Below are positions 6,778 to 54,553 of a stretch of 64,000 nucleotides of DNA, piece after piece. Made by a program: the position numbers and the translations under genes. Positions within the stretch are counted from its first letter, which is position 1. Every line of letters starts with the position of its first letter. Location of the stretch: positions 159,982-223,981 of the forward strand of contig CAVTRW010000005.1 in NCBI GenBank assembly GCA_963737195.1. Reading direction: 5' to 3'. The notes under the pieces were generated by a model. That model was not told where the DNA came from and did not search any database. It saw nothing but the letters and a program-made list of their open reading frames with translations. This DNA is from an uncultured Verrucomicrobiae bacterium. GTDB lineage: Bacteria > Verrucomicrobiota > Verrucomicrobiia > Chthoniobacterales > UBA10450.

Positions 6778-8205
6778 TCAACGCGTTAGTGCGTGCAGAA
6801 TCGGCTGCGGATAAACTCCAAGCACGATATTCGCGACCAGTAACAGCGTGATCGCCGCGCGCGAGAGTCCGCTGATAGGAATTGCGTCGCGATTCTTCGG
6901 TTCTTCCCAGTACATCGCGCGCACGACTTTTAAATAATAATAAAAACCGCATCCAACCGTGACGACACCCACGGCTGCGAGCGCAAACTGGCGTTGCTGG
7001 ATCGCAGCGTCGAAAACGAAGAACTTCCCTAAAAATCCGGCGGTGAACGGAACGCCCGCGAGCGAGATCATTGCAACAAGCATGGCGAAGGCGAGAAAGG
7101 GCGAGCGTTTGCTCAAACCATTGAAATCCTGGATTTTTTCGCCGCTCTGATTTGCCACCACGATTAGCACCGCAAAACTCAGCAGCGTCATGACCAGGTA
7201 CGCGACGAGATAATAACTGGTCGCGACGCCGGACATCGAAACGATGCCGATCAGCAAATATCCAGTGTGACCAATGCTCGAGTAAGCGAGCAGTCGCTTG
7301 AGATTGCTTTGCGGAAGTGCGGCGAGGTTTCCGTAAATCAAAGTCAGGATCGCGACGATGACGAGAGCACGCTGCACCTGCGGCAAAATGAAGAATGGGT
7401 GCAGAATTCGAAGAAGAACGACGAACCCGGCAGCTTTTGAACCAACGGAAAGAAAAGCCGTGATTGGCGTCGGCGCGCCTTCGTAAACGTCCGGCACCCA
7501 GATCTGCAATGGGACGGCGGCGATCTTGAACCCGAGCGCGACCAGAACCAGCACCATTCCAAAAAGCGCCGGCATCGTTTCGATGTGACCACTCGTTAGG
7601 GCAGCCGCCACCCGATCGAGATTCGTTTCGCCGGTCACGCCGAAAATCCAGGTAATGCCGTAAACGAGAAAACCGGTCGCGACGGCGCTGAGAATCAGGT
7701 ATTTCACACCCGCTTCCAGGGTCGCGGGATTGCGTCGCGTAAAACTGACGAGGACGTAGAACGAAACCGAAACAAGCTCGATCGAAACGAAGATCATGAC
7801 GAAGTCGATCGCGGAGGCGATCCACATCAATCCCGCGCAGGTAAAAAGCGGCAGCGCGAAGAATTCGCCGAGACCCGCTTGCGAAGTGACGCCGTGAACT
7901 AACGAGCGCACGGTCGGCGCGTAATCGATCATCATGATCAGCACAAAAATCGTCGTTACGAGCGCGAAGCGTTTGAAGAAAATCGCGAGCGAATCAGCCG
8001 CATAGAAATTCCAAAATGCCGATGGATGATCGACCGGCGCAGGCGCGACGAAGAAGCTGGCGAGCAAAATCACGACGAGACCGGCGATCGCCGCATAGGC
8101 GATTCCTTCCTTTTCGATTTTCTCGGAGAACGCTTCGAGCAGCAGCAACCCGGCGCCGAGAAGAATGACGGCGATCTCGAGAGTGGGCGCGCCGATCATG
8201 ATCAC
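6778..8205 (-). CDS. nuoN: NADH-quinone oxidoreductase subunit N
   Basis: The 475-aa polytopic antiporter-like subunit is the last gene of the nuo cluster and overlaps the nuoM stop. Confidence 0.9.
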   Translation of the reverse strand: MIMIGAPTLEIAVILLGAGLLLLEAFSEKIEKEGIAYAAIAGLVVILLASFFVAPAPVDHPSAFWNFYAADSLAIFFKRFALVTTIFVLIMMIDYAPTVRSLVHGVTSQAGLGEFFALPLFTCAGLMWIASAIDFVMIFVSIELVSVSFYVLVSFTRRNPATLEAGVKYLILSAVATGFLVYGITWIFGVTGETNLDRVAAALTSGHIETMPALFGMVLVLVALGFKIAAVPLQIWVPDVYEGAPTPITAFLSVGSKAAGFVVLLRILHPFFILPQVQRALVIVAILTLIYGNLAALPQSNLKRLLAYSSIGHTGYLLIGIVSMSGVATSYYLVAYLVMTLLSFAVLIVVANQSGEKIQDFNGLSKRSPFLAFAMLVAMISLAGVPFTAGFLGKFFVFDAAIQQRQFALAAVGVVTVGCGFYYYLKVVRAMYWEEPKNRDAIPISGLSRAAITLLLVANIVLGVYPQPILHALTR

Positions 8206-9678
8206 TTCGCGGCGAAAAAGCTGCGGAATGGCGGAGTGACGATCTGGACGAACGATTGCGGGAAAAATCCGACCGCGAGCAGGGCGGCAACGAGCAGGGT
8301 GATCGGCAACCGCAGCGAGTTGCGCAGATCAACAAGACCACTCCACTTGCTCTCCATTCGTCCCATGAAAACAGCGCGATAAGCGCGCAACATGTAGACG
8401 GCGGAAATCACGACTCCCCAGAGCGCGAGCGTCGTTGCCACTTGGAATGCGTCGAACCGCAACATGTTCGCGCCGCGCCTGAACGCGCCAAAGAAAATCA
8501 ATACTTCCCCGGCAAAATTCGCGAAGCCGGGCAAGCCGATGGCGGCAAACGCCGCGAGTCCGAAAACGAATCCGGCAAAAGGCATCGTCTTCGCGAGTCC
8601 GCCCAGGTCTTCGAAAACGAGTGTGCCCGTGCGGCGGCGCAGTTCACCAGTGATGCCGAAAAGAAGGGCGATCGAAAGTCCGTGCGCGAGCATGAGAATC
8701 GCGGCGCCATAGATCCCGATAATGTTTGCGCTGGCAATACCGAGAAAAATGTAGCCCATGTGCATGACGCTGGAATAACCGAGCATCCAATCGAGCCGTT
8801 TCTGCGCGATCGTGACAAGTCCGACGTAGATGATGTTCCCGAGCAACAGGACGATGAGAAGTTTGTTCCAATATTGCGCGCCGGCCGGCAGCAGTGGAAT
8901 GGCGAGACGCAGCAATCCGTAAAGTCCGAATTTTTTCAACACGCCCGCATGCAGCATCGCGGCCGGCGATGGCGCCGAGGCATATGCTTCCGGCGCCCAC
9001 GTATGAAATGGAAAAAGCGAAATGAGAATTCCGAAACCGATGAGCAACACCAAATAAATGTTTTGTTGTGCGCCGGCGCTGATTTGACCGGCGTTGGCGG
9101 CGGCTTGCAAAACGGCAAAGTCAAAACTGCGCGAGGCTCGCGGGCAAACTGCGATAGAGCAGGATCAAGCCGAGCAACAAAATGAAACTGCCGATCGCGA
9201 GGTAGATCGTGATTTTCCAAGCCGCGGTTTGCCGGTTGCCGGTTCCCCAAATTCCGATGAGCAGGAATGTCGGGATGAGTGCGAGCTCGTGGAACGCATA
9301 AAAGAAGAACAAGTCGATCGAAGCGAAAGCGCCGACTGCGCCCGCGGAAATGAAAAGCAGACAGGAGTAAAACGCGCCTTCGTTGCGTGAGATTTCCGCG
9401 GTGAACCAGATCGCGGCGAATGTGACGATCGCGGTCAGGAGCAGCATGATGAGACTCAAGCCGTCGATGCCGAGGGCAAAGCGCCAGCCCCAATCGGGAT
9501 TGATGGTCCACGCGGTGACGAATTGAAAACCAACAGCGCCTTTATCGAACCGGGAGAGGAGCAGCCCTGCGCCGATCAGCTCGATCGTGGCGGCGACGAT
9601 GGCAGTTCGTCGCGCGGGCGCGCCAAACAAAATCGCGATCGCGGCAACGATGGGGGCAAAAAGGATGAGCAATAGCAT
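8202..9678 (-). pseudogene. nuoM: NADH-quinone oxidoreductase subunit M, frame broken once as sequenced
   Basis: ORFs 9121..9678 (N-terminal 185 aa) and 8202..9110 (C-terminal 302 aa) are colinear with NuoM. The join ...LPASLAQF|DFAVLQAAANAG... requires skipping 1 nt in a T4 run at about 9121-9127. Confidence 0.85.
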
Positions 9679-11475
9679 CAGCGGAAAACGGTGAGGTAAA
9701 TGAGCCAGACAATGCCAAGACCGAAGAGAAAGGCGTAGGCCTGCAGGTTGCCGACCTGAAGGAGACGCAAGAGTGCGCCGGTTCCCCAGGTCGCGCCGCT
9801 CGCACCACGCACAGCGCCTGCATCAATGATCCAGCGATCGCAAAATGCCGCCAGACGCGAAAGAAAACCCTGCGTCCATTCAATCAGCCACTCATAGAAT
9901 TCGTCGAAGTAAAAACGGCGTCGCAAAATCGCGGCGTTGATCGGATCGGTTTCACGCGTGCGGTAGAGATAAAAAGCGAGTCCGCCCCCGAGAAGTAACG
10001 CAGTAATGGCAAGCAATGGGACAACAAAACTGACCGCTTGGTGTTCTGGCAGCGGAAGAAAACGGCGCGCAAAAAAACCAAAGCCGGCGATGAAAGACAT
10101 GAAAGCGAGAACAACCAGCGGAACGGTCATGACGGGCGGCGCTTCATCACAATGCTGAACCGCCTCCATTCGCGGCTTTCCGAAGAAAACAACGAGAACG
10201 AGGCGCATCATGTAGAACGCGGTCAGGAATGCGGTGAAAAGACCGAGCGCGAAAATCGCCGGGTTGCGTTCGTAAGCGATGGCGAGAATTGCGTCTTTGC
10301 TAAAAAATCCGCTGAACCCCGGGAAGCCGGTCAGCGCAAGCGTGCCGACACCGAATGTGAGAAATGTTATCTGCATTCGCCGGGCAAGCGCGCCCATTTT
10401 CCAAATGTTTTGCTCGTGATGCAGCATGATGATGATTGCACCCGCGCCGAGGAAGAGCAGCGCCTTGAAAAACGCGTGCGTGAAAAGGTGAAACATCGCC
10501 GCTTCGCCCGAAGCGAGACCGACGGCGGTAATCATGTAGCCGAGCTGCGAGATGGTGGAGTAGGCGAGAATTTTTTTTATGTCGTCCTGCTGCGTTGCGG
10601 TTAACGCGGCGATGACGGAGCTGATCGTTCCGATCCACGCGATGACGAGGAGCGCCGTCGGCGACAGTTGAATGAGAAAACCGACGCGCACCAGCATGTA
10701 AACACCCGCCGCCACCATCGTCGCGGCGTGGATCAAGGCAGAGATTGGTGTCGGACCCTCCATCGCGTCCGGCAACCAGACGTGCAGCGGAAATTGTGCG
10801 GACTTGCCGACGGCACCGCAAAAAATCAAAAGCGCGGTAACGGTCAGATATCCAGGGTGCGAGGTTAGCTTCGAGATGTTCGACGCGATCTCGGTAAAGA
10901 CGACGGAGCCAGTCGCAGTCCACGCCATCAAAATGCCGAGCATGAAACCGAAATCGCCGATGCGATTGGTGATGAAGGCTTTTTTGGCGGCATCGGCGGC
11001 GGCGTCGCGTTCGAACCAGTGCCCGATCAAAAGATAGGAGGCGACGCCGACCAGCTCCCAGAAGATGAACATCATCACGAAATTGTTCGCCAAGACGATG
11101 CCGAGCATGGCGAACATGAAGAAGGAGAGCGCGGCGAAGTAGCGCGACTGGCCTTTGTCTTCGCGCATATAGCCTAACGAGTAAATATGAATGAGCGCGC
11201 CGACGCCAGTAACCAGAACGAGCATTGTCTTGCTCAGACGATCGAGAACGAAAGCGAACGGAATATCGAGCATCGGCCAAAGATTAATCCAATGCGCCGT
11301 CGCGAGGATTTGAATTTGGATTGGCGAAGAGGATGCAACTTCCGACAAAACAAATGCAGACGGTTGCAACTGAAATCCAACTGCTGATGCGACGCGACCA
11401 ACTCGTGACCAAAACGATCGTAAAAGCCGCCGCGAGCGGCAGAAACAAAACCAGCCACGGCAAGTAATCGATCAT
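9678..11475 (-). pseudogene. nuoL: NADH-quinone oxidoreductase subunit L, frame broken once as sequenced
   Basis: ORF 11284..11475 (MIDYLPWLVLFLPLAAAF..., the NuoL N-terminus) and ORF 9678..11369 overlap in frames offset by 1 nt. The junction lies at about 11309-11330. Confidence 0.85.
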
Positions 11476-11501
11476 GACTGGAATAGATGCCTTCCAACGG
11501 C

Positions 11502-11615
11502 CCGGGGAGCGCGCCCGCCTCGGGCGCTACGCTTGGCGCCCTCGCCGAGCGCCTTCTTCTTCCGGCTTTTCGGCGAGGCGCCGAAAAGTGCGCCCGAGGC
11601 GGGCGCGCTCCCCGG
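11502..11615. repeat. palindromic element family C, copy 1 (CCGGGGAGCGCGCCCGCCTCGGGCGC ... GCGCCCGAGGCGGGCGCGCTCCCCGG)
   Basis: The 26-nt terminal inverted repeat encloses an inner hairpin cttttcggcgaggcgccgaaaag. The element lies between nuoL and nuoK. Confidence 0.85.
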
Positions 11616-11638
11616 ACAATATTGCGTCATGCGTTTCA

Positions 11639-11959: not shown

Positions 11960-11960
11960 A

Positions 11961-12464: not shown

Positions 12465-12500
12465 AGTTAGCCTAACGATAAATCCAACCGTTCAACGCAG

Positions 12501-14808: not shown

Positions 14809-16531
14809 TCACTTCGACGCTTTTTCTTTCTCGCGACGTTGCACCTTTTCCTTTGCTGGCTCACCCGATGGCGGGTCCGTTTCCAAATCCAAGATCTGCA
14901 CGCCGAGGTCGCCGATTTTGCTCAAATTGAGCCCGGCGAATTGCGGAATCGCCGCGCTCATTTCGCGAAACACATCTTCAATCGAATAAATGCCGTTCTG
15001 TTCGGTGCAGGCTTGAATCAAGTCGCGCAAAATTTCCCAATCGTCGCGCGCCGCACCGGGGCCAGCGACCGCGCGATTCAATCGCTGCAGCCGACCTTTG
15101 CGATTGATCATCGAACCGCGCTTCTCCGCGAAACCGAACGAAGGGAAAACCGCCGTCGCCAACGGCGTGGATTCGTTCTTCAGAATGTCCATGACAACAA
15201 AAGTGGGAAGCGCTGCGAGTTGTTCCGCAGTTATGCTCGAGCTTGAGTGGATCTTCGCCCAGCGCGATGAGCGCTCTGAGTTCGCCCGAAGCAATGTCAT
15301 GTGCAATTTGCGCAAGCTTCTCACCCGGCTCACTCGTTAGGCCGAGAATCAACTTCGCACCGTTTGTATTTGGATTGCGATCTTCGCTCAGCAGAATTTC
15401 ATCGCCCGGTCCGCTGCGCGGCAAAATGTCGAGCAGTTCGACGCCGAGAAGTTTTGCCAGTCGCGAAGTGAGCCAAAGTTCCTCGTTCGTCATGCGACCG
15501 GAGGCGAGGATCGCAATTTGTCGGCCCGCAAATTGTCGCAATTGCGTCGCGACATCGCGAATGACAGTTTCCCACGGACTCGGCGCGAGCTTGCCGTTAA
15601 TGAACATCTGCGGTTCGAGCAGACGTTCCGGCGCTTCAAGATAACCGAAATTGAGACGGCCGTAGTCGCACATCCAGCAGGAGTTAACGGCATCGTTTTC
15701 GCGCGGCGTCTGGCGGTAGATCACATCCTGGCGCGTGCCGATGAGTGTGTTGCAACCCGTCGCGCAACTGGTGCAGAAACTTTTCGTCTCTTTCAAAAAC
15801 CAGACGCGCATTTTGAAACGGAAATCCGAGGAGGTGAGCGCGCCGACGGGGCAAATGTCGACGGTGTTGAGCGAATAATTATTCTCCAGTCGCTTGCCCG
15901 GATGCGCGGTGAGAACGCTGTGGCTGCCGCGATCGACGAAGCCGAGGACATCATCGTGCACAATCTCCTGGCAGAAGCGAATGCAGCGCGAACACAAAAT
16001 GCAGCGCTCGTCGTCGAGCGTAACGCGCGGACCGAGTTCGACGTTCTTCGGTTTCTTGACCTTGTTTTCGAGAAAGCGCGAGGCCGCGTTCCCGTAGTCG
16101 ACGCTGAACTCCTGTAAACGACATTCACCCGCCTGATCGCATATCGGACAATCGAGCGGGTGATTGATGAGCAAAAACTCCATCACGCCGCGACGACATT
16201 CTTGCGCGAGCGGTGAATCGGTGCGCACGCCCATTCCTTCGGCGACATCCTGCGCGCAACAGATTTGCGGACGCGGCATCCAGTTGATGACCGGTTTACC
16301 GTCTGCGCCGAGCTCCGGTTTGCGATCGGGCCCCATGCGCGGCATGCCCATCTCGATCAAACACATGCGGCAGTTGCCGGGAGAGGTAAGCTTTTTGTGA
16401 TAGCAATAACGCGGCACAAAAAATCCTGCCTGCTCGCACGCCTCGATCACGCGTGTGCCTTTCGGAAATTGATGCCACGTCCCGTTAATCTGGACGTTGA
16501 ACAGTGGCGGAGAAGTTTGCTCGGCCATCAA
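14809..16531 (-). pseudogene. nuoG: NADH-quinone oxidoreductase subunit G, frame broken once as sequenced
   Basis: ORFs 14978..16531 and 14809..15333 carry the N-terminal 2Fe-2S/4Fe-4S Cys clusters. The join ...ALGEDPLKLE|ITAEQLAALPTFVVMD... lies near 15235-15240. Confidence 0.85.
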
Positions 16532-17990
16532 ATTGTTCCGGCTGTGCCGGCTTTTTCCCAGCCGGGATCGCGGGCGAGGGGACGGGTTGGAATTGATGAC
16601 TCCTCGATTAACTCGTTAGGCGTGTATTCGGGTGGGAGTGCTGGAGGTGTAGGCTTGTTAGCGCGCGCGGCAAATTCTTCCGGGAATTTTTCGACGAAAC
16701 TTTGTGTCGGCCACGCACACGCTTCGCCAAAAGCGCAGATGGTGCGGCCGGCGATGTTGTCGGCGACGGTCTTGAGCGTTTTTGGATCCTGCTGAACTCC
16801 GCCGCCGAGCAACATGCGGTCGGTGATTTTTTTCATCCAAAGCGAACCCTCACGACACGGCGTGCACTGGCCGCAACTCTCGTGCGCATAAAATTCGTTG
16901 ATGTTGTTGAGCACCCAAACCATGTCGCGCGAATCGTCGAGCACGATCACGCCACCGGAACCGGCCATCGATCCGGCCGCGGCCAGCGAATCGAAATCGA
17001 GCGGGATTTGGTCGATCGGCATCTCGCGTTCGATTGTTGTGCCGTCGATCTGTTTTTCCTTGAGCTTGAACATTTCATCCGCGCGCAAAACCTTCGCTGA
17101 ACTTCCGCCAGGAATGACCGCCTTGAGTCTCCGTCCCCACCGAATTCCGCCGGCCATGTCGTAGAGGAGTTGGCCCATCGTGACTGCGCCGACCTCAATT
17201 TCGTAATAACCGGGACGCGCGACGTCACCGCTTACGCACACGATACGCGTGCCAGTATTATTCGGTCGGCCGATTTTCGCATAGGCCGCGCCGCCCATCG
17301 CGATGATGTGTTTCACGTGGCAGAGCGTCTCGACGTTGTTCACGATCGTGGGCGACATGTAGAGACCGAGCACGGCCGGAAAATACGGCGGCTTGATCCG
17401 CGGATAGGCGCGCTTGCCCTCGAGCGATTCGATCAGGCCGGTTTCTTCGCCGCAGATGTAGGCCCCGGCGCCACGATGAATATGAATCTCAACATCGAAG
17501 CCGGTACCGAGAATATTTTTCCCGACAAAATTTTTCGCGCGCGCTTCTTCGATTGCGCGTTCGAGGATTTTCGCGCCCTCGGGAAATTCGCCTCTTATAT
17601 ATATGTACGCGATGTGCGCGTTCAGCGCGAAGCATGAAATCAGAATTCCCTCCAGCAGTTGGTGTGGATCTTCATGGATGATGTAACGATCCTTGAATGT
17701 GCCTGGCTCGGATTCGTCGGCGTTGCAGATCAGGTAGACGGGCTTTTTCTCGTCGGGTTTGATGAATCCCCATTTCACACCGCAGGGAAAACCGGCACCG
17801 CCGCGTCCGCGCAGCCCGGAGATTTTGACTTCGTTGACGATGTCGGACGCGCGCCATCGTCACTGCTTTCTTCAGTTGGTCGTATCCGCCAGCCTTCAGG
17901 TAGCAATCGATGTCGATCGTCCAGTTTTCGCGGCCGATATTTTCGAAGATTAGTCGACGTTCGAGTGGATGAGGGCGACGAGTTGGGTTT
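16528..17990 (-). pseudogene. nuoF: NADH-quinone oxidoreductase subunit F, 5' region frame-disrupted; 5' end approximate
   Basis: The main ORF 16528..17778 begins inside the conserved GLRGRGGAGFPxGxKW motif. The preceding residues (...PHPLERRLIFENIGRENWTIDIDCYLKAGGYDQLKKAVTMA) lie in another frame with no ATG/GTG/TTG start. Confidence 0.8.
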
Positions 17991-18566
17991 CCAAGGAGCG
18001 GCGGTTTCCAAACCGCCGTTTGTCTCAGTTCGGCGATCTGGAGATCGGCGCTCCTTGAGCAGCTCCGAAGCAGCTACCGACCGTGCATTTTCCACGAGCT
18101 CGTCTTCGATCATGCAAACCGGTGCGGTCCCGCAGCTCGCGAGGCATTCGACAAATTCAATGCTGTAATTTCCTTCGGCGCTCACTGTCACCGGCGTGTG
18201 CGTTCCATTCGCGTCGACGTGGCGCTCGATACCCGTCGCGGCGCAAAGATCATCCATCAGCTCGTAACTTCCGGCCATCGCGCAGCTCAACGTGCGGCAG
18301 ACCCGAATATGTTTCTTCCCCGCCGGCGCCTGGCGAAGCATGGGATAGAACGTGACCAGTTCTAGAATGTTGATCGGTTGCAACTCCAGCTTCGCCGCGA
18401 TCCACCTGACGCCTTCATCGCTAATGAAACCGAAATGTTCCTGCCATAAATGCAAAAGCGGCAGGGCCGCACTGCGTTTGTGTTCGGACGGATAATGCCC
18501 GATGGCGTCATCCATTTTTCGCTCCAACTCGGGCGGAAGACGCGTGCTCGTCGAGTCCACAGACAA
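17775..18566 (-). CDS. nuoE: NADH-quinone oxidoreductase subunit E; true 3' end unresolved
   Basis: The 2Fe-2S motifs are CRTLSC ... CLASCGTAP. The ORF has no stop near the expected end (about 18010-18050) and reads on out of frame through the nuoF 5' region. Confidence 0.8.
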   Translation of the reverse strand: MSVDSTSTRLPPELERKMDDAIGHYPSEHKRSAALPLLHLWQEHFGFISDEGVRWIAAKLELQPINILELVTFYPMLRQAPAGKKHIRVCRTLSCAMAGSYELMDDLCAATGIERHVDANGTHTPVTVSAEGNYSIEFVECLASCGTAPVCMIEDELVENARSVAASELLKERRSPDRRTETNGGLETAAPWKPNSSPSSTRTSTNLRKYRPRKLDDRHRLLPEGWRIRPTEESSDDGARPTSSTKSKSPGCADAAVPVFPAV

Positions 18567-30625: not shown

Positions 30626-31760
30626 ATGGCGAACGAGCTTCAGACCTTCGATGCAGAGGAACTAACAGCGCGTGTGCGCGAGTTGCGGAGGTTTCTTTGA
30701 CGTCCCGAAGCTCGAGAAAGATTTAGTCGCGCTCGAAGCGCGCATGTCCGCGCCCGATTTCTGGTCGAACCGCGAGCGGGCCCAATCGGAAGTTGAAGAG
30801 GTTTCGCGACTGCGCTCGCTTCTGAATCCATTTCGCGAACTCGAGCGCGCGGCGGAAGATTTCGAAGCGTTGCAGCAACTCGCCGTTGAGGAAAGCGATC
30901 CCACTCAACGCGCGCATGCAGAAAAAGAAGTGGCCGACGAACACGCGCGGCTTCTGCACAAACTCGAGGCGTTCGAATTGCGCCAGTTTCTTTCCGGCGA
31001 AAACGACGCATCGAATGCGTTCGTCACGATTCATTCCGGCGCGGGCGGAACGGAGTCGTGCGATTGGGCGGATATGCTTTTGCGCATGTATCAACGCTGG
31101 ATCGAACGCAGCGGTTTTACCTCGCAGGTTGTCGATATCCAGACGGGGGAAGAAGTTGGAATCAAGTCGGCCACGCTGTTGGTGCGCGGCGATTACGCCT
31201 ACGGATATCTCAACACCGAGCGCGGGGTGCATCGGCTCGTGCGTATCTCGCCCTTCGACGCGAACAAGCGTCGCCATACTTCGTTTGCCAGCGTCGATGT
31301 TGTGCCCGAGATCGGAGACTCGGCCCCGATCGAAATTAATCCGGCCGATCTCGAGATCGATACCTATCGCTCCGGCGGCAAAGGCGGACAGAACGTCAAC
31401 AAAGTTGAGACGGCGGTGCGCATCGTGCACAAACCGACGGGAATCGTCGTCGCCTGTCAGGCCGAGCGCAGCCAGGGTCGCAATCGCGAGCTCGCGATCA
31501 AAATGTTAAAAGCAAAACTTTACGAGATCGAGCAGGACAAAAAACGGGCCGAGATCGACCGGCAGTACGGCGAGAAAGGTGATGTGGCATGGGGCAGCCA
31601 AATTCGGTCGTACGTCTTTCAACCCTATCAGATGGTGAAAGATCACAGGACCGGCGCGGAAACGAGCAATGTGCAGGCGGTGATGGACGGCGAGATCGAT
31701 CTTTTTATCCAGGCAAAACTGCGCGGACAAAAGGGCGGCGAGGATAACTCCGACGTTTAA
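30626..31760 (+). CDS. prfB: peptide chain release factor 2, programmed +1 frameshift: join(30626..30697,30699..31760)
   Basis: A 24-codon leader ends in CTT TGA C at 30695-30701, and the protein continues in the +1 frame. The SPF and GGQ motifs ([19 protein letters not shown]) are present. Confidence 0.95.
30687..30701 (+). promoter_or_regulatory. prfB autoregulatory frameshift site (GGAGG-TTT-CTT-TGA-C)
   Basis: An internal Shine-Dalgarno-like GGAGG lies 3 nt upstream of the slippery CTT and the in-frame TGA followed by C. Confidence 0.9.
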
Positions 31761-33874: not shown

Positions 33875-35007
33875 ACTGACTTGCTTTATGCTTCGTCAGG
33901 CGATCGAGGACGCGGCCAACGACGGCGCCGGCCGAGTCGATATCTTCGGTGGTAGTTTGTTTGCCTAACGAAAATCGAACGGCCGAGCTGGCGCGTTCCG
34001 TCGAGAGACCCATCGCGAGCAGCACGTGCGACGCGGTGACCGAACCCACCATGCAGGCCGAACCGCTCGACGCGCACACACCTTCCAAATCCAGCGCCAT
34101 GAGCAGCGTTTCCGAGCTGAGTCCGCGAAAACTGATATTCAACGTGTTCGCGAGGCGGTGATCGGTGTCTCCGTTCTGCACTGCGTCTGGAAAACTTTGC
34201 GCAATTTGTCTCCACAAATCGTCACGCAGCTTCTGCTCCCTGATCTGCTCTTGCTCGTTAGGCAAAAATTCCGCTGCCGCCGCCATTCCAGCGATCGCGG
34301 CAACGTTTTCCGTCCCGGGTCGGCGCTCGTTTTCATGGGAACCGCCGAACTGGATCGCTTCAATCGGAATGCCGGCGCGCAAATAGAGAAATCCCGCGCC
34401 TTTTGGTCCGTAAAATTTGTGAGCGGCAAAACTGGCGGCGTCGACGAGCGCGCTGTCGGTTTCGATCTTGCCAAACGATTGCACCATGTCGCTGTGCAAA
34501 AGCACTCCGCGTTCGCGGCAGATTTTTGAGATCTCGCGCATCGGCTGGATGACACCGGTCTCGTTATTCGCCGTCATGATCGAAACAAGCGCGGTATCGT
34601 CGCGGATGGAATCGGCAAGATGATCGAGATCAACAATGCCATTCTCGGAAACATCTAGCCATCGTCACCTCGAATTCTTCACGTTTTTCCAAATGCTCAA
34701 CCGCGTTGAGCACGGCGTGATGTTCCGTTTTGCAACTGATGACGTGTCGCGACGGTCCGCTACGCGCGAGGCCGAGCACGGCGAGATTGCATGATTCCGT
34801 GCCGCCGCTCGTAAAAATAATTTCGTGCGGCTTCGCGTGAATCAGCCCGGCGATTTTATCGCGCGCATCATCGATCGCCGCGCGCGCGACTCGTCCGGCT
34901 GCATGCACACTCGATGGATTTCCAAAATCGCGTTGCAAATACGGCAACATCGCCTCGCGCGCTTCATCGCAAAGCGGCGTCGTCGCGTTGTAATCGAGAT
35001 AAATCAT
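33861..35007 (-). pseudogene. cysteine desulfurase (NifS/IscS family), frame broken once as sequenced
   Basis: ORFs 34630..35007 and 33861..34577 are colinear. The join ...EEFEVT|WLDVSENGIVDLDHLADSIRDDTALVSIMTANNETG... lies near 34662. The motifs SAHKFYGPKG and SSGSAC are present. Confidence 0.85.
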
Positions 35008-35104: not shown

Positions 35105-36020
35105 TTATTCCGCGAATGTATCGGTGCGCACTTCGACCTTGTGCGGCCGTTTCTGCACAATCTCGATTCGCTTTTCCTCGTAATAAACGAGCGAGTTCTT
35201 CGGCACACTTTGCGTGAGGAAAACATTTGCCCCGATGGTCGAGCCCGCGCCGATCACGGTATCGCCGCCCATCACACTCGTGCCGGCGTAAATGGTCACG
35301 TTGTCCTCGACCGTGGGATGCCGCTTTTTCCCGCGCAGGGCACGGCCAGCTCCAAGTGTCTTGGCGATGAAGGAAACGCCTTGGTACAGTCTTACGTTCG
35401 ACCCGATCTCGGTCGTTTCGCCGATGACCACACCCGTGCCGTGGTCGATAAAAAAATGCGAACCGATTCGCGCGCCGGGATGGATATCGATGCCGGTGCG
35501 GCTGTGCGCCCATTCCGCCATGATGCGTGGGATGATTGGCACCTTCTCGTAGAGCACATGCGCCATGCGATAAATCGCGATCGCTTCCAGCGATGGATAG
35601 GCGAGAATGATCTCCTCGAAACTTTGCGCCGCCGGATCGCCTTCATATGCCGCGTCGATATCGGTCCAAAGTAGTCGGCGGACTTCGGGCAACTGCGCGG
35701 TGAAGAATTCCAAAATTTTATCCACCTTCTCCTGTGTTTCCTGACTGGCCGGATAATCGCCGAGGCTTTTGCAAAATTCCGGCTTGAGCAATCCGTGCAA
35801 TTTGCGCACGCGACTGCGCGTCACATCAGGCAGATCGGTCGAGTCGACCAATGATTCGCCGCGAAAGCCCGGAAACATCAGACTCATCAATTCCGCGCAG
35901 GCTGACTTCGATCGCGCCGCGCGAGGGAAGGTTGGCGGCGGCGGCAAGATAATTGATGCCGCCGGTCTCGCTGTAAGTCTGAAGCAACTCATCGATTGCG
36001 TCGCGTGGCTTTGTGTCCAT
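35105..36020 (-). pseudogene. cysE: serine O-acetyltransferase (long form), frame broken once as sequenced
   Basis: The N-terminus MDTKPRDAIDELLQTYSETGG...AIEVSLR (frame of ORF 35826..36056) joins ELMSLMFPGFRGE... (ORF 35105..36052) near 35894. The hexapeptide-repeat C-terminus is present. Confidence 0.8.
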
Positions 36021-36073: not shown

Positions 36074-36831
36074 GTGCGCGCGGCGGTCATTTTGCACGCC
36101 GTGCGATTGTTGAGCCTGTTCTATCTTCTGGCGGCCGTGAACAGTCAGTCCTTCAACTTGCCCGCGCCGACGCGGCAATTGCTTGTCGTCACGGCGCGAT
36201 CATGGTCGAGCACGACCGGAAGTCTGCAGCGTTATGAGCGAGCCGGAAAAAAATGGCAAGCCGTTGGCGACGCAATCCCGGTAAGCGTCGGAAGACATGG
36301 ACTCGCGTGGGGAAGAGGCTTGCATCGCATTCCAAAGAGCGCGCGCGAAAAGTGCGAAGGCGATGGTTGTGCGCCCGCCGGAGTCTTCGCGATTGGCCCC
36401 GCTTTCGGTTATTCCGCGAAACCTCCCAGCGATTGCAAACTTTCTTACCGCGCCGCAACCGATCACGATTACTTCGTCGATGATCCAACATCCGCCGATT
36501 ACAACCGGTGGGTCACGATTCCCGCACGGTCAGCCGAACGATCCTGGAAAATTCTGGAAATCATTTGAGAGAATGCGCCGACACGATCATCGCTACGAAT
36601 GGGGAATTGTGATTCAACAGAACGACCATCCCGATCGCAAAAGGAAAAGGGAGCGCGATTTTCTTTCACGTCTGGCAAAGCGCGGGCGTCTCGACTGCCG
36701 GCTGCACCGCAATGGCGCGCGAAAATTTGCTCGAACTGCTGCGATGGCTCGATCCGAAGCAACAGCCGTTGCTCGTGCAAGGGCCGGCCGCTGAGATCAA
36801 AAATCTCTTGGCGATTGAATCGACGCGGTAA
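36074..36831 (+). pseudogene. L,D-transpeptidase-like protein, frame broken twice as sequenced; start uncertain
   Basis: Three colinear frames join as ...DYNRWVTIPA|GQPNDPGKFW...NDHPDRK|GKGSAIFFHVWQSAGVSTAGCTAMARENLLELLRWL. The junctions lie at about 36525 and about 36642. Confidence 0.6.
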
Positions 36832-41933: not shown

Positions 41934-42946
41934 CTATAACAATTCCGGTTGCGCTCCCGCCGGTGGTTTCAATCCGAGTTTGCGATAAGCATTCGGTGTT
42001 GCCACGCGGCCTTGCGGCGTGCGCTTGATGTAACCTTCCATGATCAGATACGGTTCGTTCACTTCTTCGAGCGTGCCAGGCTTCTTCGCCGACGGCAACG
42101 GCGAGCGAACTCAAGCCGACCGGACCGCCATTAAATTTGTGAATCAACGTTTCGATGATGCGCTTGTCCCATTGATCGAATCCGTCGCGATCGATTTCCA
42201 GCATCGTTAGGGCGCGATCCGCCAGTTCGGCCGTGATTTTTCCATCCGCTTTCACCTGCACGTAATCGCGCACCCAGCGCAGTAAGATTATTTGCGGTGC
42301 GCGGTGTTCCGCGCGTGCGCGTTGCAATTTCAGCTGCGCCTTTCGCATCAATTTCCACGCCTAACAAACCGGCGCTGCGCAAGATAATTTTCTGCATTTC
42401 TTCCGCGCTGTAATAATCGAGCCGCGCCGTCATGCCGAAACGTGAACGGAGCGGCGCGCTCACCATGCCCGCGCGCGTCGTCGCGCCGATCAAGGTGAAC
42501 TTCGGCAATTGCAATCGCAGGCTGCGCGCCTGTGGACCCTGATCGATGATGATATCGAGCCGGTAATCTTCCATCGCCGGATAAAGATATTCTTCGATCG
42601 TCGGTTGGAGCCGATGAATCTCATCGATGAAAAGCACATCGCCTTTTTCCAAACTGGTCAGCAACCCCGCGAGCTCGCCCGCTTTCTCGATCACCGGTCC
42701 ACTCGTGTTCTTGATGTTTACGCCCATCGCGTTCGCGATGATGTAGGCCAGCGTGGTTTTGCCGAGTCCCGGCGGGCCGCTGAGCAAAATATGCTCGAGA
42801 ACGTCGCCGCGTTTTTTCGCCGCTTCGACCAGGACCTCGAGACGTTCGCAAACCTTCACCTGACCGGTGAACTCGCTGAACATCGGCGGTCGCAGCGAAA
42901 CTTCGAAAACGGGATCCGGTTCAGGTGGCTTCATCACTGGAATCAT
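41934..42946 (-). pseudogene. ruvB: Holliday junction DNA helicase RuvB, frame broken twice as sequenced
   Basis: Three colinear frames join as ...[12 protein letters not shown]|[16 protein letters not shown]...LAVAVGEE|[37 protein letters not shown]. The junctions lie at about 42283 and about 42080. Walker A is GPPGLGKTT. Confidence 0.9.
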
Positions 42947-43611: not shown

Positions 43612-44359
43612 ATGCGGAAAATTTTTTTCGCGCTGCTGTTTGTGGCTTCGAATGTTTTGGCGCAGGAACATCCCACCGCCTATAACGCGTTGCGCGTCGT
43701 CGGCACGAAATTCAATCGCGAGGCGGTCAATCACGTCATCTCTGTCAGCGGAACCAACGGCACACCCCAACCGGAAACATGGAAGGTTCTGCTCGCGGAT
43801 AAGCGCGCGAGCGGCGGGGTGCGTGAAATCGAAGTCGCGAATGGCCAGATCGTTTCCGAACGCACACCGGTCCGTTCCGTCGTCGGTTCTACAGAAGGCG
43901 CTACGATCAACACTTCGCATCTAAACCTCGACTCAAACGGCGCCTTTTCTGTTGCCAGGCGCACCGCGGAAAAATCGAATACACAATTCGAGACGGTGAC
44001 TTACACCCTGCGCACGGACGAACGTGGCGAACCGATCTGGATCGTTACTTTGGAAAACCAGTCGCGCCACCCTGTCGGGAACGATCCATATCGGCGCCAA
44101 TCGCGGAACGGTTGTGCGAACGGAAGGAATGTTTCACGGCGCCCCAATGAATCAGGTCGTGAATGCGGACGAGGCCAATCGTGATGTTACCGATGAAGGG
44201 AATGGCGACGAGGACGAGAACGTGGTGAAGCGCAACATCAAACAATGGTTCCGGCAGGTGAGCGCCGATGCGGGCAACATGTTTCAAAATGTTCGCCGGT
44301 CGTTCGCGGACTTCATGCATGGCGGACCAGAAGACGACAGCGAACAGGACGACGAGTGA
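43612..44359 (+). pseudogene. secreted hypothetical protein with acidic C-terminal tail, frame broken once as sequenced
   Basis: The signal peptide is MRKIFFALLFVASNVLAQ. ORFs 43342..44184 and 44024..44359 are colinear, with the join ...LENQSRHPVG|TIHIGANRGTVVRTEG... near 44080. Confidence 0.45.
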
Positions 44360-48672: not shown

Positions 48673-49793
48673 ATGAATACGATTTCCATTTCCCGGCGCA
48701 GATTTGCGCAGTTGTTAGGCGCAGGCGCGGCCTGTGCCGTCGTCCGGCCCGCTTTTTCCCTCGCGGCGGAGACCGTCGACTGAAACGTTTGCTGACGGCG
48801 TCGTGCGTCTCAGTTCAAACGAAAATCCCTATGGACCATCAGCGACTGCGCTCAAGGCCATGACCGATTCGTTTAATATTGCCTGCCGTTATCCGGATAA
48901 GCATGCCGACGAATTAATCGATGCGCTCGCGAAACTGAACGAAGTCAATCGCGATCAGATTCTGCTGGGCGACGGCTCAGGGGAGATTCTGAAGCTTTGC
49001 GCGGAGGCATTTACTGGCGCAAAACGCGGTGCGCTTGTCGCAGCCGATCCGACTTTTGAAGCGATATTGAATCATGCGCGGATCCGCGGCGCGAAAGTAG
49101 TCAAAATTCCCCTAACGAATAATTTCGCACACGATCTTCCGAAAATGGCGGCAGCGGCCCAGGCCGGCCTCATTTACGTTTGCAATCCGAACAATCCGAC
49201 TGCGAGCATCACGCCGAAGGATGCAGTGCGTCAGTTCATCGAAAAGACGCCGCGCAAAACGATGATTCTCGTGGATGAAGCGTACTTTCACTTCGCCGAT
49301 AGCTCCGACTACGAGAGCGTGATTCCCGCTCGTCAAAGACCATCCGAATCTGCTCGTGGCGCGGACGTTTTCGAAAATCTACGGCATGGCGGGACTGCGC
49401 TGCGGCTATTGCGTCGGCCAGCGCGAAGCCATCGCGCAAATGCGTCCCTACCAACCATGGGACAGCGTGAACATCATGGCGATCGTCGCTGCGGTGGCGA
49501 GTTTGAATGATCCACAGCAGGTCGAGAACGGACGCCGACTCAACAGCGAAGCCAAAATTTTCGTGACCGGCGAGTTGAACACGATGGGTTATCAATCGAT
49601 TCCGTCGCAGGCGAACTTCTTCATGGTTGATGCAAAACGCTCGGTCGTCCCGCTCATCCAGGCGATGAAAAATCAGAATGTGGAGGTCGGCCGATTATTT
49701 CCCGCGATGCCGAATCACATGCGCGTCACCATCGGCAAGAAAAGCGAAATGGAGAGTTTCCTAACCGCGTTTCGTCAAGTAACGGCGGCCTGA
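48673..49793 (+). pseudogene. HisC-family PLP aminotransferase with twin-arginine signal peptide, frame broken twice as sequenced
   Basis: The leader MNTISISRRRFAQLLGAGAACAVVRPAFSLAAETVD (ATG about 48673) joins |ETFADGVVRLSSNENPYGP... at about 48781. A second join ...YESVIP|[27 protein letters not shown] lies at about 49328. Confidence 0.75.
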
Positions 49794-49800
49794 TGAATTC

Positions 49801-49912
49801 TGGGGAGCGCGCCCGCCCTCGGGCGCCGCGCTCGGCGCCCTCGCCGAGCGCTCTCTCTTCTGCTTTTCGGCGAGGCGCCGAAAAGAGCGCCCGAGGGCGG
49901 GCGCGCTCCCCA
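49801..49912. repeat. palindromic element family C, copy 3
   Basis: The element is nearly identical in layout and interior to copy 1, with the same inner hairpin cttttcggcgaggcgccgaaaag. Confidence 0.85.
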
Positions 49913-49925
49913 GACAAAATGACAC

Positions 49926-50204
49926 TTACGCGTGAGCGTGCGCGAAGCGCTGTGCGGAACGCGCTCGGGCCTTTGCCGCTTCCAATTCCCGATCGCGCGG
50001 CGGTGCATTCGTCACCAGCGAATCGAGGAGCTCGCGCGCCACGTGCGTGACCTGATCGACTGCGCGATTGAAAGCGTTCTCGTTCGCTTTTGACGGTTTT
50101 GCGAATCCGCTCAGTTTGCGCACGAATTGAAGAGACGAAGCACGAATCTCGTCATCTGTCGCCGGCGGCTGGAAATTATGCAGGGTCTTTATGTTTCGGC
50201 ACAT
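49926..50204 (-). CDS. DUF2277-like small protein
   Basis: The N-terminus MCRNIKTLHNFQPPATDDEIRASSLQFVRKLSG is typical of that family, by my recollection. Confidence 0.55.
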   Translation of the reverse strand: MCRNIKTLHNFQPPATDDEIRASSLQFVRKLSGFAKPSKANENAFNRAVDQVTHVARELLDSLVTNAPPRDRELEAAKARARSAQRFAHAHA

Positions 50205-50260
50205 GCCGTTTTCTTAGCACCGGCCGCGAGAAAATCACGTGCGTCTTGATACTCCGCCTG

Positions 50261-50506
50261 TCAGTTAAGACGGTGCTTCCGACGCGCAGCGAGGGTGAAA
50301 GCCAAATAGAAAATCGCCCAGAAGAAAAAAAGTCCGGCGACAAAGCCGGCCACGATGGCTTTGAAATTGATCATGTCGCCGGGCGCGCGCGGGAGCAAAC
50401 GATCGAACAGATCCAATTCCCAGCGAATAATCGTTTGCAGCAAAAACCCGACATTGACCGGTGGCAGAACAGTTGCGAGTGCAATAAACGCAGCGAGCGC
50501 AGCCAC
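50261..50506 (-). CDS. small membrane protein (hypothetical)
   Basis: The 81-aa product has two hydrophobic helices. Coding status is uncertain. Confidence 0.3.
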   Translation of the reverse strand: MAALAAFIALATVLPPVNVGFLLQTIIRWELDLFDRLLPRAPGDMINFKAIVAGFVAGLFFFWAIFYLAFTLAARRKHRLN

Positions 50507-50561
50507 AGCCGCAAGCGAACGAACCAGCGAGTCGTCGCATGAAATCTCGCGCGCCGAGCCG

Positions 50562-52260
50562 CTATTTCTTTTGCATCATCTCGTCGCGCTTCGGCTTGAA
50601 TTCATTTTCAGGTTTCCATTCCGGAAACTTGTCGCCATTCGCGACTTCGTAGCCGACATCCAAGAGCAAATCCACGTCCTGCACGGCGCCGGATAAATCC
50701 CAATCGGGATGAATTTCGTCCGTGACTTGATGATAATCTTTCAGGTCGTACTCATCGGCGCGCAGCGGCCCATCTTCCGCGCGCGAAAGCAGGTGCTGGT
50801 TCTTGCCGATATAGAGCGAAGGCAACCCAACTTTTGAAAATTCAAAGTTATCGGCGCGATAAATGTTTCCTTTTTCGGGGCGTCCGTTCGGAACCGCAAC
50901 ACGGCCCTGTCGCGTGGCGGCATCGGCGAGCATGTCGTCGAGTGTCGAGAAACCAAAACTGATATCTTCGATATCGCGCGCTTTGCCCCAGACGTTGAGC
51001 GTGTCGATGTTAATATCGGCGAGCGTTTGCCGCAGCGGATAAAGCGGATGTTCCGCATAGAATTTTGCGCCTAACAAACCGGCTTCCTCCGCCGTCGTGG
51101 CCATGAAAAGAAGCGATCGTTTCGTTTTTGTTTTGGCGAATGCTTCCGCCAGCTCGAGCAAGGCGGCGACGCCGGAGGCGTTATCAACCGCACCATTGAA
51201 AATCTGATCGCCCTGCAACTCGGCGTGCTTCCCGAGATGATCCCAGTGCGCGCTAAAGAGGACGTATTCATTTTTCAAGTTCGGATCGGTGCCGTCGATT
51301 CGACCAATGACATTCCGCGATTTAAACGAGCGAACTTTTTGTTTGATGTGAAAACTGGCGCGCACTGGCAGCCGGTCCTCATGTTCGCGCGGCATCAATT
51401 GGATGGGACGGAAATCCTTCGAAGTCGCCGCTTTTTTCAGTTGGTCGTAATCGAGTCCGGATTCAGCGAGTAGTTTCTTTGCCACATCGAGCGTGATCCA
51501 GGAGCGAACCTGCACCGCATCAGCATTCTTGTTTGTGTTATCGAGCTCGAAATTTTCCTTCGACCAGCTCGTCCGGACGACTGAATACGGATACGCCGCC
51601 GGCTGCGGTTTCATGGATGATGACGGCTGCGGCCGCGCCTTTTTCCGCCGCGATTTCGTACTTATAGCTCCAGCGCCCGTAATAAGTCATGGCGCGACCT
51701 TTGAACATTTTCTCATCGAGCTTCGAAGGGTCGTTCGGATCGGGAATCTGCGGATCGTTGATCAACATCAGCAGCGTTTTGCCGCGAACATCGAGACCTT
51801 TGTAATCATCCCAGCCGTATTCGGGGGCAACGATGCCGTAGCCGACAAACACGACCGGCGAATTGTCGACCTTGATGTCTTCCTGCAAACGCGCGGAAGA
51901 CGCGACGAAATCGTCGGGAAATTTCAAATTTGTCGGCTGCTCTGCGCCAACGCTGAATGAGGCCTGCGGCTCGCTCAGAATGCCGGCGAGCGGAACTTCC
52001 TGCGTGTAGCTGCCGTTCGGGTTGCCGGGTTTCAGGCCTAACGACTTAAATTGTTCGCTGATGTATTTAACCGAAAGGTCCTCGCCTTTCGAGCCTGGCG
52101 CGCGCCCTTCAAATTCGTCGGACGAAAGAACTTTGATGTGACGGAGAAGACCATCGGCCGTGATGGCCTTGGCGGCGGCCGCTGGCGGTAGATTCGCGTT
52201 ATCTCCGGCAAAGCAAGTAAGCGCGAAAGCCGCGAGGAAAAAGGAAGCGAGACGTTTCAT
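50562..52260 (-). pseudogene. M28-family aminopeptidase with PA domain, frame broken once as sequenced
   Basis: The signal peptide is MKRLASFFLAAFALTCFA (start 52260). ORFs 51538..52389 and 50562..51614 overlap with a 1-nt frame offset, and the junction lies at about 51595-51612. Confidence 0.8.
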
Positions 52261-52272
52261 AGCGTGAGTTGA

Positions 52273-52316
52273 GCAGTAAGAGATTCCTCGACTTCGCTCG
52301 GAATGACAAAAAGTTT
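52273..52316. repeat. palindromic element family B, half copy (right arm only)
   Basis: aagagattcctcgacttcgctcggaatgac is identical to the right arm of copy 2 and abuts family A copy 6. Confidence 0.6.
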
Positions 52317-52333
52317 TGCGCGAAAGCAACGCT

Positions 52334-52404
52334 GTCATCCTGAGCGTAGCGAAGGACCTCACGATTGCAGAAAATGTGAGGTCCCTCACTGCGTTCGGGA
52401 TGAC
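52334..52404. repeat. palindromic element family A, copy 6
   Basis: gtcatcctgagcgtagcgaaggacctcacg ... tgtgaggtccctcactgcgttcgggatgac. Confidence 0.85.
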
Positions 52405-52412
52405 AGTGTGAT

Positions 52413-54553
52413 TTAGTGCGCTTCTTCCGATGGTCCGGCGGGCGCTTTCTTCTTATCCTGCGCGCCGATGCCAATCTTTTTCAGGAACGGCTGGATCGAT
52501 TGTTTGCGGCCGAGAAATTTCTCGATCGAAACGGTGACGTCGCGCGAATCGCCGACTTCGTAAATTTCGTGACGCAATTTCAATCCCGCTTGTTTGTCGA
52601 GATAACCGTTTTTCGCTTTTTCAAAAACGGTCGCCATGTCTGCGGCAATGGCATCGGCCCAGGCGTAACCGTAGTAACCGGCATCGTAACCGTTCATGTG
52701 ACCGAAGTAAGTCACCATCGACGTGCTCGGATCGATCGGGAGAAAAACCTTCTCCAAAATTGGATTGGTGATCGCGACACAATCATAGGGCGCATTCTCC
52801 GGATGCTGGTCGTGCATCGCCAGATCAATCGAAGCGAGCGCGAACTGACGTCGATACCATGTCGCGGCAGTCGCGAGCTTCGCGTCATTCATCTTCTGAA
52901 TAATTTCCGCCGGAATTTTCTTCGACGGATCACGATAATCGGCCGCGAAAGTATCGAGGACGGTTTTGTTCCAAACCCAGTTCTGCAACATTTGCGAAGG
53001 CGCTTCCACGAAATCGCCCGGCACATTCGAGCCGGCAAATCGGCTGGTACTTTGCTCGCGTGACAATGGTGTGCAGCGCGTGTCCGAACTCATGGAACAG
53101 GGTTTCGACATCCGTATGCGTCATCAGCGAGGGCTTATCGGCGCTCGGTGGCGGGAAGTTGCAAAGGAGCGCGCACAGTTGGCCGCTGATATTTCCCGTC
53201 AGGGAGAAGTTTGCCATCAATGATGTTGAACTGCGCGAAGTGATTGAACTTTCCGTCGCGCGGAAACATATCGAGATAGAACATGCCGAGCGGCTCGCCG
53301 GTGGCCGAATCCGTTACCACGTAGAGCTGCAGATCATCGACCCATTTGTAGGGCGCGCTGATTTTCTCGAACTTTAATCCGAAGATGTTCTGGTAGATGG
53401 CGAACATGCCATCGAGCACTTTCTGAAACGGGAAGTAGGCGCGGAGCGCTTCCTTATCGACGTTGTATTTTTGTTTGTTGATCTGATTTTGGTAATAGCG
53501 CCAGTCCCACGTCGCGATCTTTGCCTTCGGATCGTTTGTGTCGGCGGCTTTCATCTTCTGCATCTGCGAAATTTCCGCCTCGAACTTTGGCTGGGTGCCG
53601 CGAATTAGATTGTCGATGTATGATTTCGCGCCGGCGCCGGTCTTGGCGAGTTTGATTTCGGTCTGGTAATCGTCCCACGATTTGTAACCAAGCTTCAGCG
53701 CGATCTTATTTCGCAACGCAAGCATCTGGTTCAGCACCGGCGCGTTCGCGTCTTTCGCGAGCGAATCATGAACGAGGTAGAGCTTCTTGCGTGTTGCTTC
53801 ACTCTTTGCGTTTTCTTCCACCGTCGTGAAATGCCATGTGATGTTGGCCATCACCGTGTAAGCATCGTCGCCCGTCTTCACACCGGGCTCGGCAAGGAAA
53901 CTTTCCGGCACGCCGTCGAGTTCGGCTTTGGTGAAAACGACGGGCGCTTTGGTGTTGACGATGTTGACGGCGAAATCGGTGCCAAGCTTCGAGAGTTGCT
54001 TGCGCAGGTCTTCAACTTCTTTGCGTTTGTCGTTAGGCAAATCGAGGCCGGCGCGGCGAAAATCGCGCATCGTTTCCTTGAAAAGCTTTTCGTCTTCGCC
54101 GCTCAACTTCGGACGCGTATCCGCGAACGCCTTCATCGCTTTGTAAACGTCTTCGCGGTAATCAATCGCCACCTGGAAATCCTGGAACTGTTTCACCGCA
54201 TTTTCCGCGGCCGTGCGCATGGCGGGAGAAGTATTCGATTGCTGAATGACGACCGCCTTGTTCGCGGAAAGCGTCGCCTCATAAACCAGATCGTCGCGCG
54301 CAACAATCGTGCTCTTAAAGGTCACCTTGCTCAGGTCTTGTTTGCCGATCGCATCAAGCGCCGCATTCGCCTTCGCGATCGCGTCTTTCGTCATCGTGTC
54401 GACCGCTTCCGGCGTTTGCGGCCAATCGGGAATGGTGAGGACGGAATTTTTCTTTGCGGCAGCGGCCTGGAAGTCGTCGATCGATTTTGTTTCCTGAGCG
54501 AAAAGCGGCGCGCCCACACAGAGCAACAAGAGAGACGTGAAGAGACGTTTCAT
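52413..54553 (-). pseudogene. M3-family oligopeptidase (Dcp/thimet-like), frame broken twice as sequenced
   Basis: The signal peptide is MKRLFTSLLLLCVGAPLFA. Three colinear frames join as ...KYQRPTV|ALLCNFPPPSADKPSLMTHTDVETLFHEFGHALHTIVTRAKYQ|RFAGSNVPGDFVEAPSQ. The junctions lie at about 53174 and about 53044. Confidence 0.85.

Follow-up and report, generated by a model that had tools for sequence, protein, structure and literature searches.

Single extra bases split conserved genes throughout a soil Verrucomicrobiota assembly, most likely as consensus errors

Twelve conserved genes in the window, a 64,000-nucleotide stretch of a metagenome-assembled genome (MAG), are interrupted by 17 frame breaks, each of which is very probably a single extra base in the MAG consensus. 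The breaks are almost certainly errors of a noisy long-read consensus and represent no new biology; in the organism itself the extra bases would be absent and the genes most likely whole.

Frame breaks in the window

The breaks were located by tblastn with the open reading frames (ORFs) of two same-genus genomes, G001 and G004, the former serving as the clean reference for break mapping, and their positions were refined by a one-base deletion scan. At each break the gene pieces are colinear with intact orthologues, and in 17 of 17 cases the frame steps from f to f + 1, as expected from one extra base. This search recovered every break that a sequence-only reading had listed in these 12 genes. 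The approximate positions given there were right to within a few bases for most sites and about 10 to 25 nt off at nuoL, cysE, the second L,D-transpeptidase site, and the first aminotransferase site. The refined positions are as follows.

9137..9144, minus strand: nuoM extra base; window CCCGCGA[G]CC, with ACC in JGI contig L055 and GCx in other relatives
11303..11308, minus strand: nuoL extra base; 1-nt gap in L054 at 11305
15237..15237, minus strand: nuoG extra base
17845..17847, minus strand: nuoF extra base; window GTCC, with GTC in G004 and GCC in G001 and L054
17972..17976, minus strand: extra base in the nuoE-nuoF linker; in G001 the two genes are fused in a single ORF
34662..34663, minus strand: extra base in a cysteine desulfurase-like gene
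35905..35908, minus strand: cysE extra base
36526..36527, plus strand: L,D-transpeptidase, extra base 1
36629..36633, plus strand: L,D-transpeptidase, extra base 2
42078..42080, minus strand: ruvB, downstream extra base; GC[C][T]GGC
42283..42287, minus strand: ruvB, upstream extra base; CTT[A]CTG
44076..44081, plus strand: extra base in a secreted protein gene
48771..48772, plus strand: aminotransferase break 1, falling after a Tat-type signal peptide and before the mature domain; common to ENA contig L053
49323..49328, plus strand: aminotransferase, extra base 2; window CC[C][G], with CCC in G001 and CCG in L053
51603..51605, minus strand: M28 peptidase extra base
53043..53047, minus strand: M3 peptidase, downstream extra base
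53173..53174, minus strand: M3 peptidase, upstream extra base; window GT[G][C], with GTC in relatives

A run of 17 breaks in one direction had been judged unexpected for random indels, and the two-sided binomial test agrees (P = 1.5e-5 for the 17 window breaks, and 1.5e-11 for 37 of 37 when the strict genome-wide set described below is included). The codon phases of the window breaks are even (5/6/6), and a 0-frame stop follows 10 to 257 nt downstream. The intervals 0 to 9, 20 to 33, and 55 to 64 kb had been described as free of breaks, and none was found there in genes with orthologues. This patchiness is weak (largest gap, P = 0.11; three largest gaps together, P = 0.04), and its use as a sign of patchwork assembly was rejected because the gaps are not significant. 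No Rfam families were found in the window.

Distribution in the assembly and in relatives

Elsewhere in the genome, 20 sampled regions spread over 11 contigs gave 39 raw +1 calls versus 9 weak −1 calls, several of the latter being in reality two +1 steps. Under strict calling, the sample retains 20 +1 and 0 −1 breaks, which together with the window makes 37:0. Breaks occur on all 11 sampled contigs and in genes of every kind, whatever their function, at a density of about 1 per 4 to 14 kb of coding DNA. The structural RNA genes, over whose tested length only about one error is expected, do not clearly repeat the pattern: the 23S rRNA shows no error-like insertion (its private insertions lie in variable helices, and the two of 1 nt are compensatory), the 16S rRNA shows one private 1-nt insertion, and the tmRNA, cut by the contig end, shows one private 1-nt deletion. 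A tRNA-Asp was looked for in the assembly and not found.

The source organism belongs to a soil lineage of the Verrucomicrobiota (Chthoniobacterales) related to Udaeobacter. Its closest relative found is ENA contig_68247 (L053/L054), with 90 to 94% nucleotide identity; names of the form contig_NNNNN are Flye-style. Comparison with orthologous loci in close relatives, which had been proposed as a check, shows that G001 is unbroken at all window break sites. ENA contig_68247 covers 12 of the window sites, and in 11 of them it is without the extra base. Each of these 11 sites shows a clean 1-nt gap, so that the single inserted base is directly visible there and the equivalence to single-nucleotide insertions claimed from the sequence is borne out at these sites. 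The nuoM of JGI contig L055 is likewise without the extra base. The relatives have breaks of their own at other positions: about 19 +1 and 1 to 2 −1 in 43 kb of ENA contig_68247, and at least 12, in both directions, in 80 kb of G004. In the collections searched, no second assembly of this species turned up, the best non-self proteins (M3 peptidase at 88% and NuoL at 91 to 98%) all coming from other species, and exact-pattern scans of JGI metagenome contigs gave no match.

Both pieces of each broken gene have ordinary identity to G001 (97/96/86% for RuvB, for example), and the downstream pieces, at 57 to 97%, are comparable to intact neighbors. This normal identity indicates that purifying selection is still acting across the breaks. 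The repaired stretches scanned around the breaks contain no stop codon.

These observations bear on the reading in which the extra bases are real mutations, carried by a population or hypermutator clone with hundreds of recent single-base insertions and true pseudogenes. The bases are present in the deposited sequence, broken genes also occur in the related assemblies, and the break at 48771 is common to one of them. Genuine pseudogenization would bring mixed indels and downstream decay; what was found is 37 insertions versus 0 deletions, unlike the usual indel mix in decaying bacterial genes, and downstream pieces that have kept normal orthologue identity, with no stop in the repaired stretches. 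Essential single-copy genes (complex I and ruvB) are affected, the set of breaks changes entirely from one assembly to another at 90 to 94% identity, and the inserted base tends to form a transition pair with the adjacent base instead of copying it, a pattern that replication slippage does not produce. Real mutation is thus very unlikely to explain the breaks.

The aminotransferase break at 48771 may be an exception. Compared with G001 it amounts to a net −2 nt, and ENA contig L053 has it too; for these reasons it may be real rather than an error confined to this assembly. If so, it may reflect a true change in the lineage, one that uncouples the Tat signal peptide.

Sequence context and the recoding readings

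The context of the 37 sites (window plus strict genome-wide set) was compared with simulated random insertions. Association with homopolymers is the same in both, at 49% of the sites versus 49% in the simulated null; the longest run at a break is 4, and there are no long A or T runs, such as would allow rescue by transcriptional slippage. No motif is common to all 37 sites, and the breaks have no stop or rare-codon context, in line with the earlier remark that the breaks share no slippery motif and that only some lie in homopolymers. TCCCG/CGGGA is weakly enriched (7 of 37 sites versus 1.1 expected), which is borderline after correction, and a methylation-like or other common motif was rejected, this enrichment being all that was seen.

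The window does contain one programmed +1 site, which serves as a point of comparison.

30627..30701, plus strand: prfB programmed +1 site; canonical GGAGG-N3-CTT TGA C, intact

The prfB (RF2) frameshift has the same +1 direction as the window breaks, but its CTT TGA C with upstream GGAGG is conserved and kept among relatives, whereas the 17 breaks have neither. The site had been said to look quite different from the breaks, and it does differ in kind from all of them; this ordinary prfB site is the sole true recoding site in the window. Programmed +1 frameshifting would use a common shift site that puts a stop or slow codon in the A site; the breaks have none, and their positions are not conserved in relatives. 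A shifty stop in nuoM (TTT TGA C) was considered and rejected: agreement with the orthologues in the +1 frame is already present 5 residues ahead of the stop, and comparison with relatives puts the gap at 9137 to 9144.

Frameshift-suppressor tRNAs with four-base decoding would mend +1 breaks, and the genome does encode a tRNA-Sec-like tRNA whose anticodon loop has 8 nt (GCAA-loop), CUGCAAAG, at C11:53165-53257. Four-base decoding, however, needs one recurring four-base codon, and the window sites have no common one: TTGC, the quadruplet that this tRNA could read, lies within 9 nt of 2 of the 17 sites and fits only that in nuoM, so that TTGC decoding was also rejected. Decoding in general, whether by programmed +1 frameshifting, an expanded-anticodon tRNA, or RNA-level correction, is favored by the direction of every break, which is the one that +1 decoding would mend, and by the in-frame TTGC at nuoM, which would suit the 8-nt-loop tRNA. 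It is opposed by the lack of a common codon or motif, of a stop or rare-codon context, and of homopolymer tracts permitting slippage. It is opposed also by positions that are not conserved even at 90 to 94% identity, whereas the true prfB site is canonical; nothing would tell the ribosome where to shift. Decoding is so improbable as to be nearly negligible. The related possibility that the extra bases are in the DNA of the lineage, placed elsewhere in G004 and ENA contig_68247, and that a motif-independent +1 correction at hundreds of sites yields full-length proteins, is extremely improbable.

Proposed origin of the extra bases and its consequences

Insertion-biased consensus error, the explanation favored in the sequence-only reading, is supported by all the indirect tests that could be applied. 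It fits breaks that are assembly-wide, absent from G001, flanked by pieces of normal identity, and devoid of a shared recoding signal, and it fits G004 and ENA contig_68247 having their own breaks at different places. The error process only adds bases and is blind to gene function, codon phase, and homopolymers. The lack of homopolymer concentration and of deletions in the strict set counts against an artifact, being unlike typical nanopore or PacBio consensus indels.

The breaks have a further property in common with each other more often than chance predicts. At 25 of the 37 sites there are two adjacent differing bases, and deleting either one restores an identical protein (null 44%, P = 0.003); at 18 of the 37 (49%; null 21%, P = 2e-4) the adjacent pair is a transition, often synonymous. 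At nuoF, aminotransferase site 2, nuoM, and the upstream M3 site, one or both of the paired bases are seen in different relatives. Two alternative bases standing side by side at many sites suggest that, where a position was polymorphic or ambiguous, both of its variants entered the consensus. The assembly would then derive from a mixed population sequenced with noisy long reads, and at such positions, mostly A/G or C/T to judge from these sequence statistics, both alternatives would have been written in succession. Writing both bases can only lengthen the sequence, which would account for every break being +1.

The same two-allele signature points to a mixed population and thereby lends something to the reading that the contig faithfully records a minority variant or a strain chimera, with some cells broken and the dominant genotype intact. 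Such dense one-base insertions in essential genes would be strongly selected against, and the insertion-only direction would be left unexplained, making this reading highly improbable.

Nanopore-only, low-coverage bins retain gene-fragmenting indel errors (PMC9262707, PMC8103633), and large soil MAG sets have been built with Flye and one Medaka round (PMC12313526). The indel errors of long-read-only genomes and metagenomes (PMC9262707; PMC8103633; proovframe, 10.1101/2021.08.23.457338) likewise split genes into adjacent ORFs genome-wide, are likewise absent from relatives, and hit other MAGs of a lineage at other positions. They are usually insertions and deletions concentrated in homopolymers, whereas those described here are insertions only, with no homopolymer preference. 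Another likeness is the collapsed long-read assembly of Trypanosoma brucei, in which apparent frameshifts arose at heterozygous sites where two alleles were merged (PMC8445201), as two alternative bases adjoin at many sites here. In that case the organism is a eukaryote with a diploid genome and the reads themselves served as a check, whereas the mixed population proposed here is deduced from sequence statistics.

The 17 breaks add nothing to the biology of recoding, and the main value of the finding is as a quality warning. At least two related assemblies have the same problem. The insertion-only direction and the tandem alternative bases could interest builders of polishers for mixed-strain long-read metagenomes. 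This species-representative genome probably carries about 270 to 540 false frameshifts, which make the gene calls, counts of pseudogenes, and lengths of proteins drawn from it unreliable.

Frame breaks in the window and across the assembly

The genome under study (G000), whose contig C5 holds the window at 159982-223981, comprises 3.81 Mb in 17 contigs with 56% G+C. Homologues come from sources named 'Candidatus Udaeobacter sp.', 'Chthoniobacterales bacterium' and 'Verrucomicrobiota', which puts the organism with the uncultured Verrucomicrobiota of soil. Two genomes of the same genus, G001 and G004 (about 78% nucleotide identity), supplied their syntenic 80 kb as the reference; the ORFs of these regions were compared with the window by tblastn, and breaks were localized by deleting single bases in turn and scoring the repaired translation against the orthologue, which gave narrow intervals. 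This revealed 17 breaks in 12 genes, all 17 of them equal to one extra base (+1; two-sided P = 1.5e-5). In all real genes, the segment downstream of the break is in frame f+1, and antisense shadow ORFs give the same calls. The sequence-only reading had reported at least this number of insertion-type breaks, in a direction too one-sided for chance, and both points hold. Every gene that it named is divided into colinear segments that occupy different frames. Most of its positions fall within a few bases of the deletion-scan intervals; the remainder differ by more. The stretches that it listed as break-free (0-9, 20-33 and 55-64 kb) showed no more breaks in the tblastn comparison. Because break spacing barely differs from random (largest gap, P = 0.11; three largest gaps, P = 0.04), these stretches are not read as meaningful. 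The break pattern itself is correctly observed and highly non-random. In G001, nuoE and nuoF form one fused ORF (663 aa) with a variable linker between them; the window (16531-18566) has the same arrangement, interrupted twice.

For the genome-wide sample, 20 further G001 contigs were each represented by their first 20 kb, and these sequences matched about 273 kb of G000. These regions, on 11 contigs, gave 39 raw +1 and 9 raw −1 junctions, the latter being weak or consisting of two consecutive +1 steps. With a strict filter (identity of 70% or more and a score of 60 bits or more for each piece), 20 +1 and no −1 junctions were retained, so that together with the window the ratio is 37:0 (P = 1.5e-11). 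By extrapolation, the whole assembly holds roughly 270 to 540 such breaks.

Comparison with relatives

Over the 80 kb compared, G001 is free of breaks; G004 carries at least 12 in its 80 kb (L011-L014, on G004:C12), in both directions. When the M3 peptidase fragment was used as a protein query, no hit other than the window's own product exceeded 88%, and therefore no independent same-species assembly was available for comparison. The best match lies on ENA ERZ25039520:contig_68247, which carries a Flye-style name. Two 22-kb pieces of this contig, L053 and L054, correspond to 42-64 kb and 0-22 kb of the window, respectively, each at 90-94% identity. In pairwise alignment with these orthologous loci, a comparison that the sequence-only reading had proposed, the extra base is absent, as a clean one-base gap, at 11 of the 12 window breaks covered (ruvB 42283, the secreted protein, aminotransferase 49325, M28 and both M3 sites in L053; nuoM, nuoL, nuoG, nuoF and the nuoE/F linker in L054). 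The JGI contig L055 (89.5% identical) likewise has nuoM without the extra base. The ENA contig has breaks of its own, about 19 +1 and one or two −1 in 43 kb, in the same genes but at other positions. The two assemblies, about 6-10% apart, have the insertion-only signature in common at sites that are almost all different. The best explanation is very probably technical, namely, an insertion-only consensus error throughout the assembly, as first proposed; the breaks occur on 11 contigs, run 37:0 toward +1 and, where the ENA contig covers them, are nearly all private.

The aminotransferase break at 48771 follows another pattern. Here, the window and L053 are equal in length, both 2 nt shorter than G001. 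In the window (48673-48800) and in L053, the mature domain is in a different frame from the Tat-type signal peptide (MNTISISRRRFAQLLGAGAA...); in G001 and G004 the two share one frame. Since independent random errors would coincide here with a chance of only about 0.04 (our estimate), this break is probably genuine sequence, a lineage-specific change, and GTG at 48734 could be a candidate start of a signal-less enzyme.

Recoding and the origin of the extra bases

The prfB gene of the window is canonical, with an ATG leader, GGAGG, CTT TGA C and subsequent reading in the +1 frame. It had been singled out as a genuine programmed site unlike the breaks, and indeed the 17 breaks differ from its CTT TGA C with upstream GGAGG. 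In frame 0, the next stop is reached 10-257 nt downstream of the breaks, and the extra base is distributed over the codon phases as 5/6/6. No k-mer is present at all 37 sites (17 in the window and 20 strict calls elsewhere), in line with the earlier remark that no slippery motif is shared, nor do long A/T runs permitting transcriptional slippage occur at the break sites. The most enriched k-mer, TCCCG/CGGGA, is found at 7 of 37 sites versus 1.1 expected, an excess of borderline significance once corrected; this subset may represent a context-specific systematic error. Examples in the window are 36519-36527, 36629-36633, 44076-44081 and 49323-49328, and the context in the subset is often TTCCCG.

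Two specific recoding candidates were rejected. The first, a shifty stop (TTT TGA C) in nuoM, is contradicted by the orthologues, which are already matched by the +1 frame five residues before the stop, and by the relatives, whose alignments put the gap at 9137-9144. The second is a tRNA that ARAGORN reports at C11:53165-53257, whose 8-nt anticodon loop would read UUGC, but TTGC occurs within 9 nt at only two of the 17 sites and yields a colinear protein at nuoM only. The downstream pieces of the broken genes are not decaying, since the pieces on either side are as identical to G001 as intact neighbors are.

The null consisted of 1,500 simulated random one-base insertions in 30 intact window genes, localized by the same procedure. 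Homopolymers had been noted at only some breaks, and their frequency is the same in both sets (49% of the 37 real sites and 49% of the null; not significant). A pair of unlike neighboring bases, either of which can be removed to leave an identical protein, is found at 68% of real sites and 44% of the null (P = 0.003), and the pair is a transition at 49% versus 21% (P = 2e-4). At several sites, the two bases are those of different relatives.

Side-by-side bases at breaks and the bases of relatives
nuoF: GT[C]C; G004 GTC; G001 and L054 GCC
aminotransferase: CC[C][G]; G001 CCC; L053 CCG
nuoM: [A][G]CC; L055 ACC; others GCx
M3 peptidase: GT[G][C]; relatives GTC

These sequence statistics suggest that the consensus may have written both variants in succession at positions either polymorphic in the sampled population or ambiguous in the signal between purines or between pyrimidines. 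Writing both variants would only ever lengthen the sequence, which would explain the insertion-only direction. Nanopore-only, low-coverage bins retain indels that fragment genes (PMC9262707, PMC8103633). Large soil MAG sets have been produced with Flye followed by one Medaka round (PMC12313526), which does not imply that G000 belongs to them.

Structural RNAs and tRNAs

The 23S rRNA (G000:C5:355-3385) contains no error-like insertion, structural RNAs being short for gauging the non-coding error rate. One of its variable helices carries a private expansion of 41 nt, and a compensatory one-base insertion pair lengthens a stem; both are real structural variation and not errors. The 16S rRNA (G000:C14:250172-251737) has one private unpaired extra base in the hairpin GCGCGG TGAAAG CCGG, where G004 and a further comparison genome, G003, keep length; this may be the same error type in a non-coding gene. 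The tmRNA is interrupted by a contig end, and no tRNA-Asp was found in the whole assembly. Beside the intact tRNA-Val(CAC) gene stands a degenerate tandem copy whose anticodon loop has 6 nt (G000:C4:154084-154260).

The tRNA on C11, outside the window, is supernumerary and of type II; its variable arm is long, and its 8-nt anticodon loop is CUGCAAAG. Its best score is with the tRNA-Sec model RF01852, at a sub-threshold 37 bits, and a normal tRNA-Sec(UCA) lies at C7:404512-404605. Its anticodon is GCA (Cys) plus one extra base, and five genomes of the same genus yielded no counterpart. These features could reflect an allo-tRNA-like gene or a tRNA struck by the same insertion error. For the biology of the organism, the analysis adds no new feature save, possibly, the signal-peptide frameshift at 48771 and this odd tRNA, which is unrelated to the breaks.
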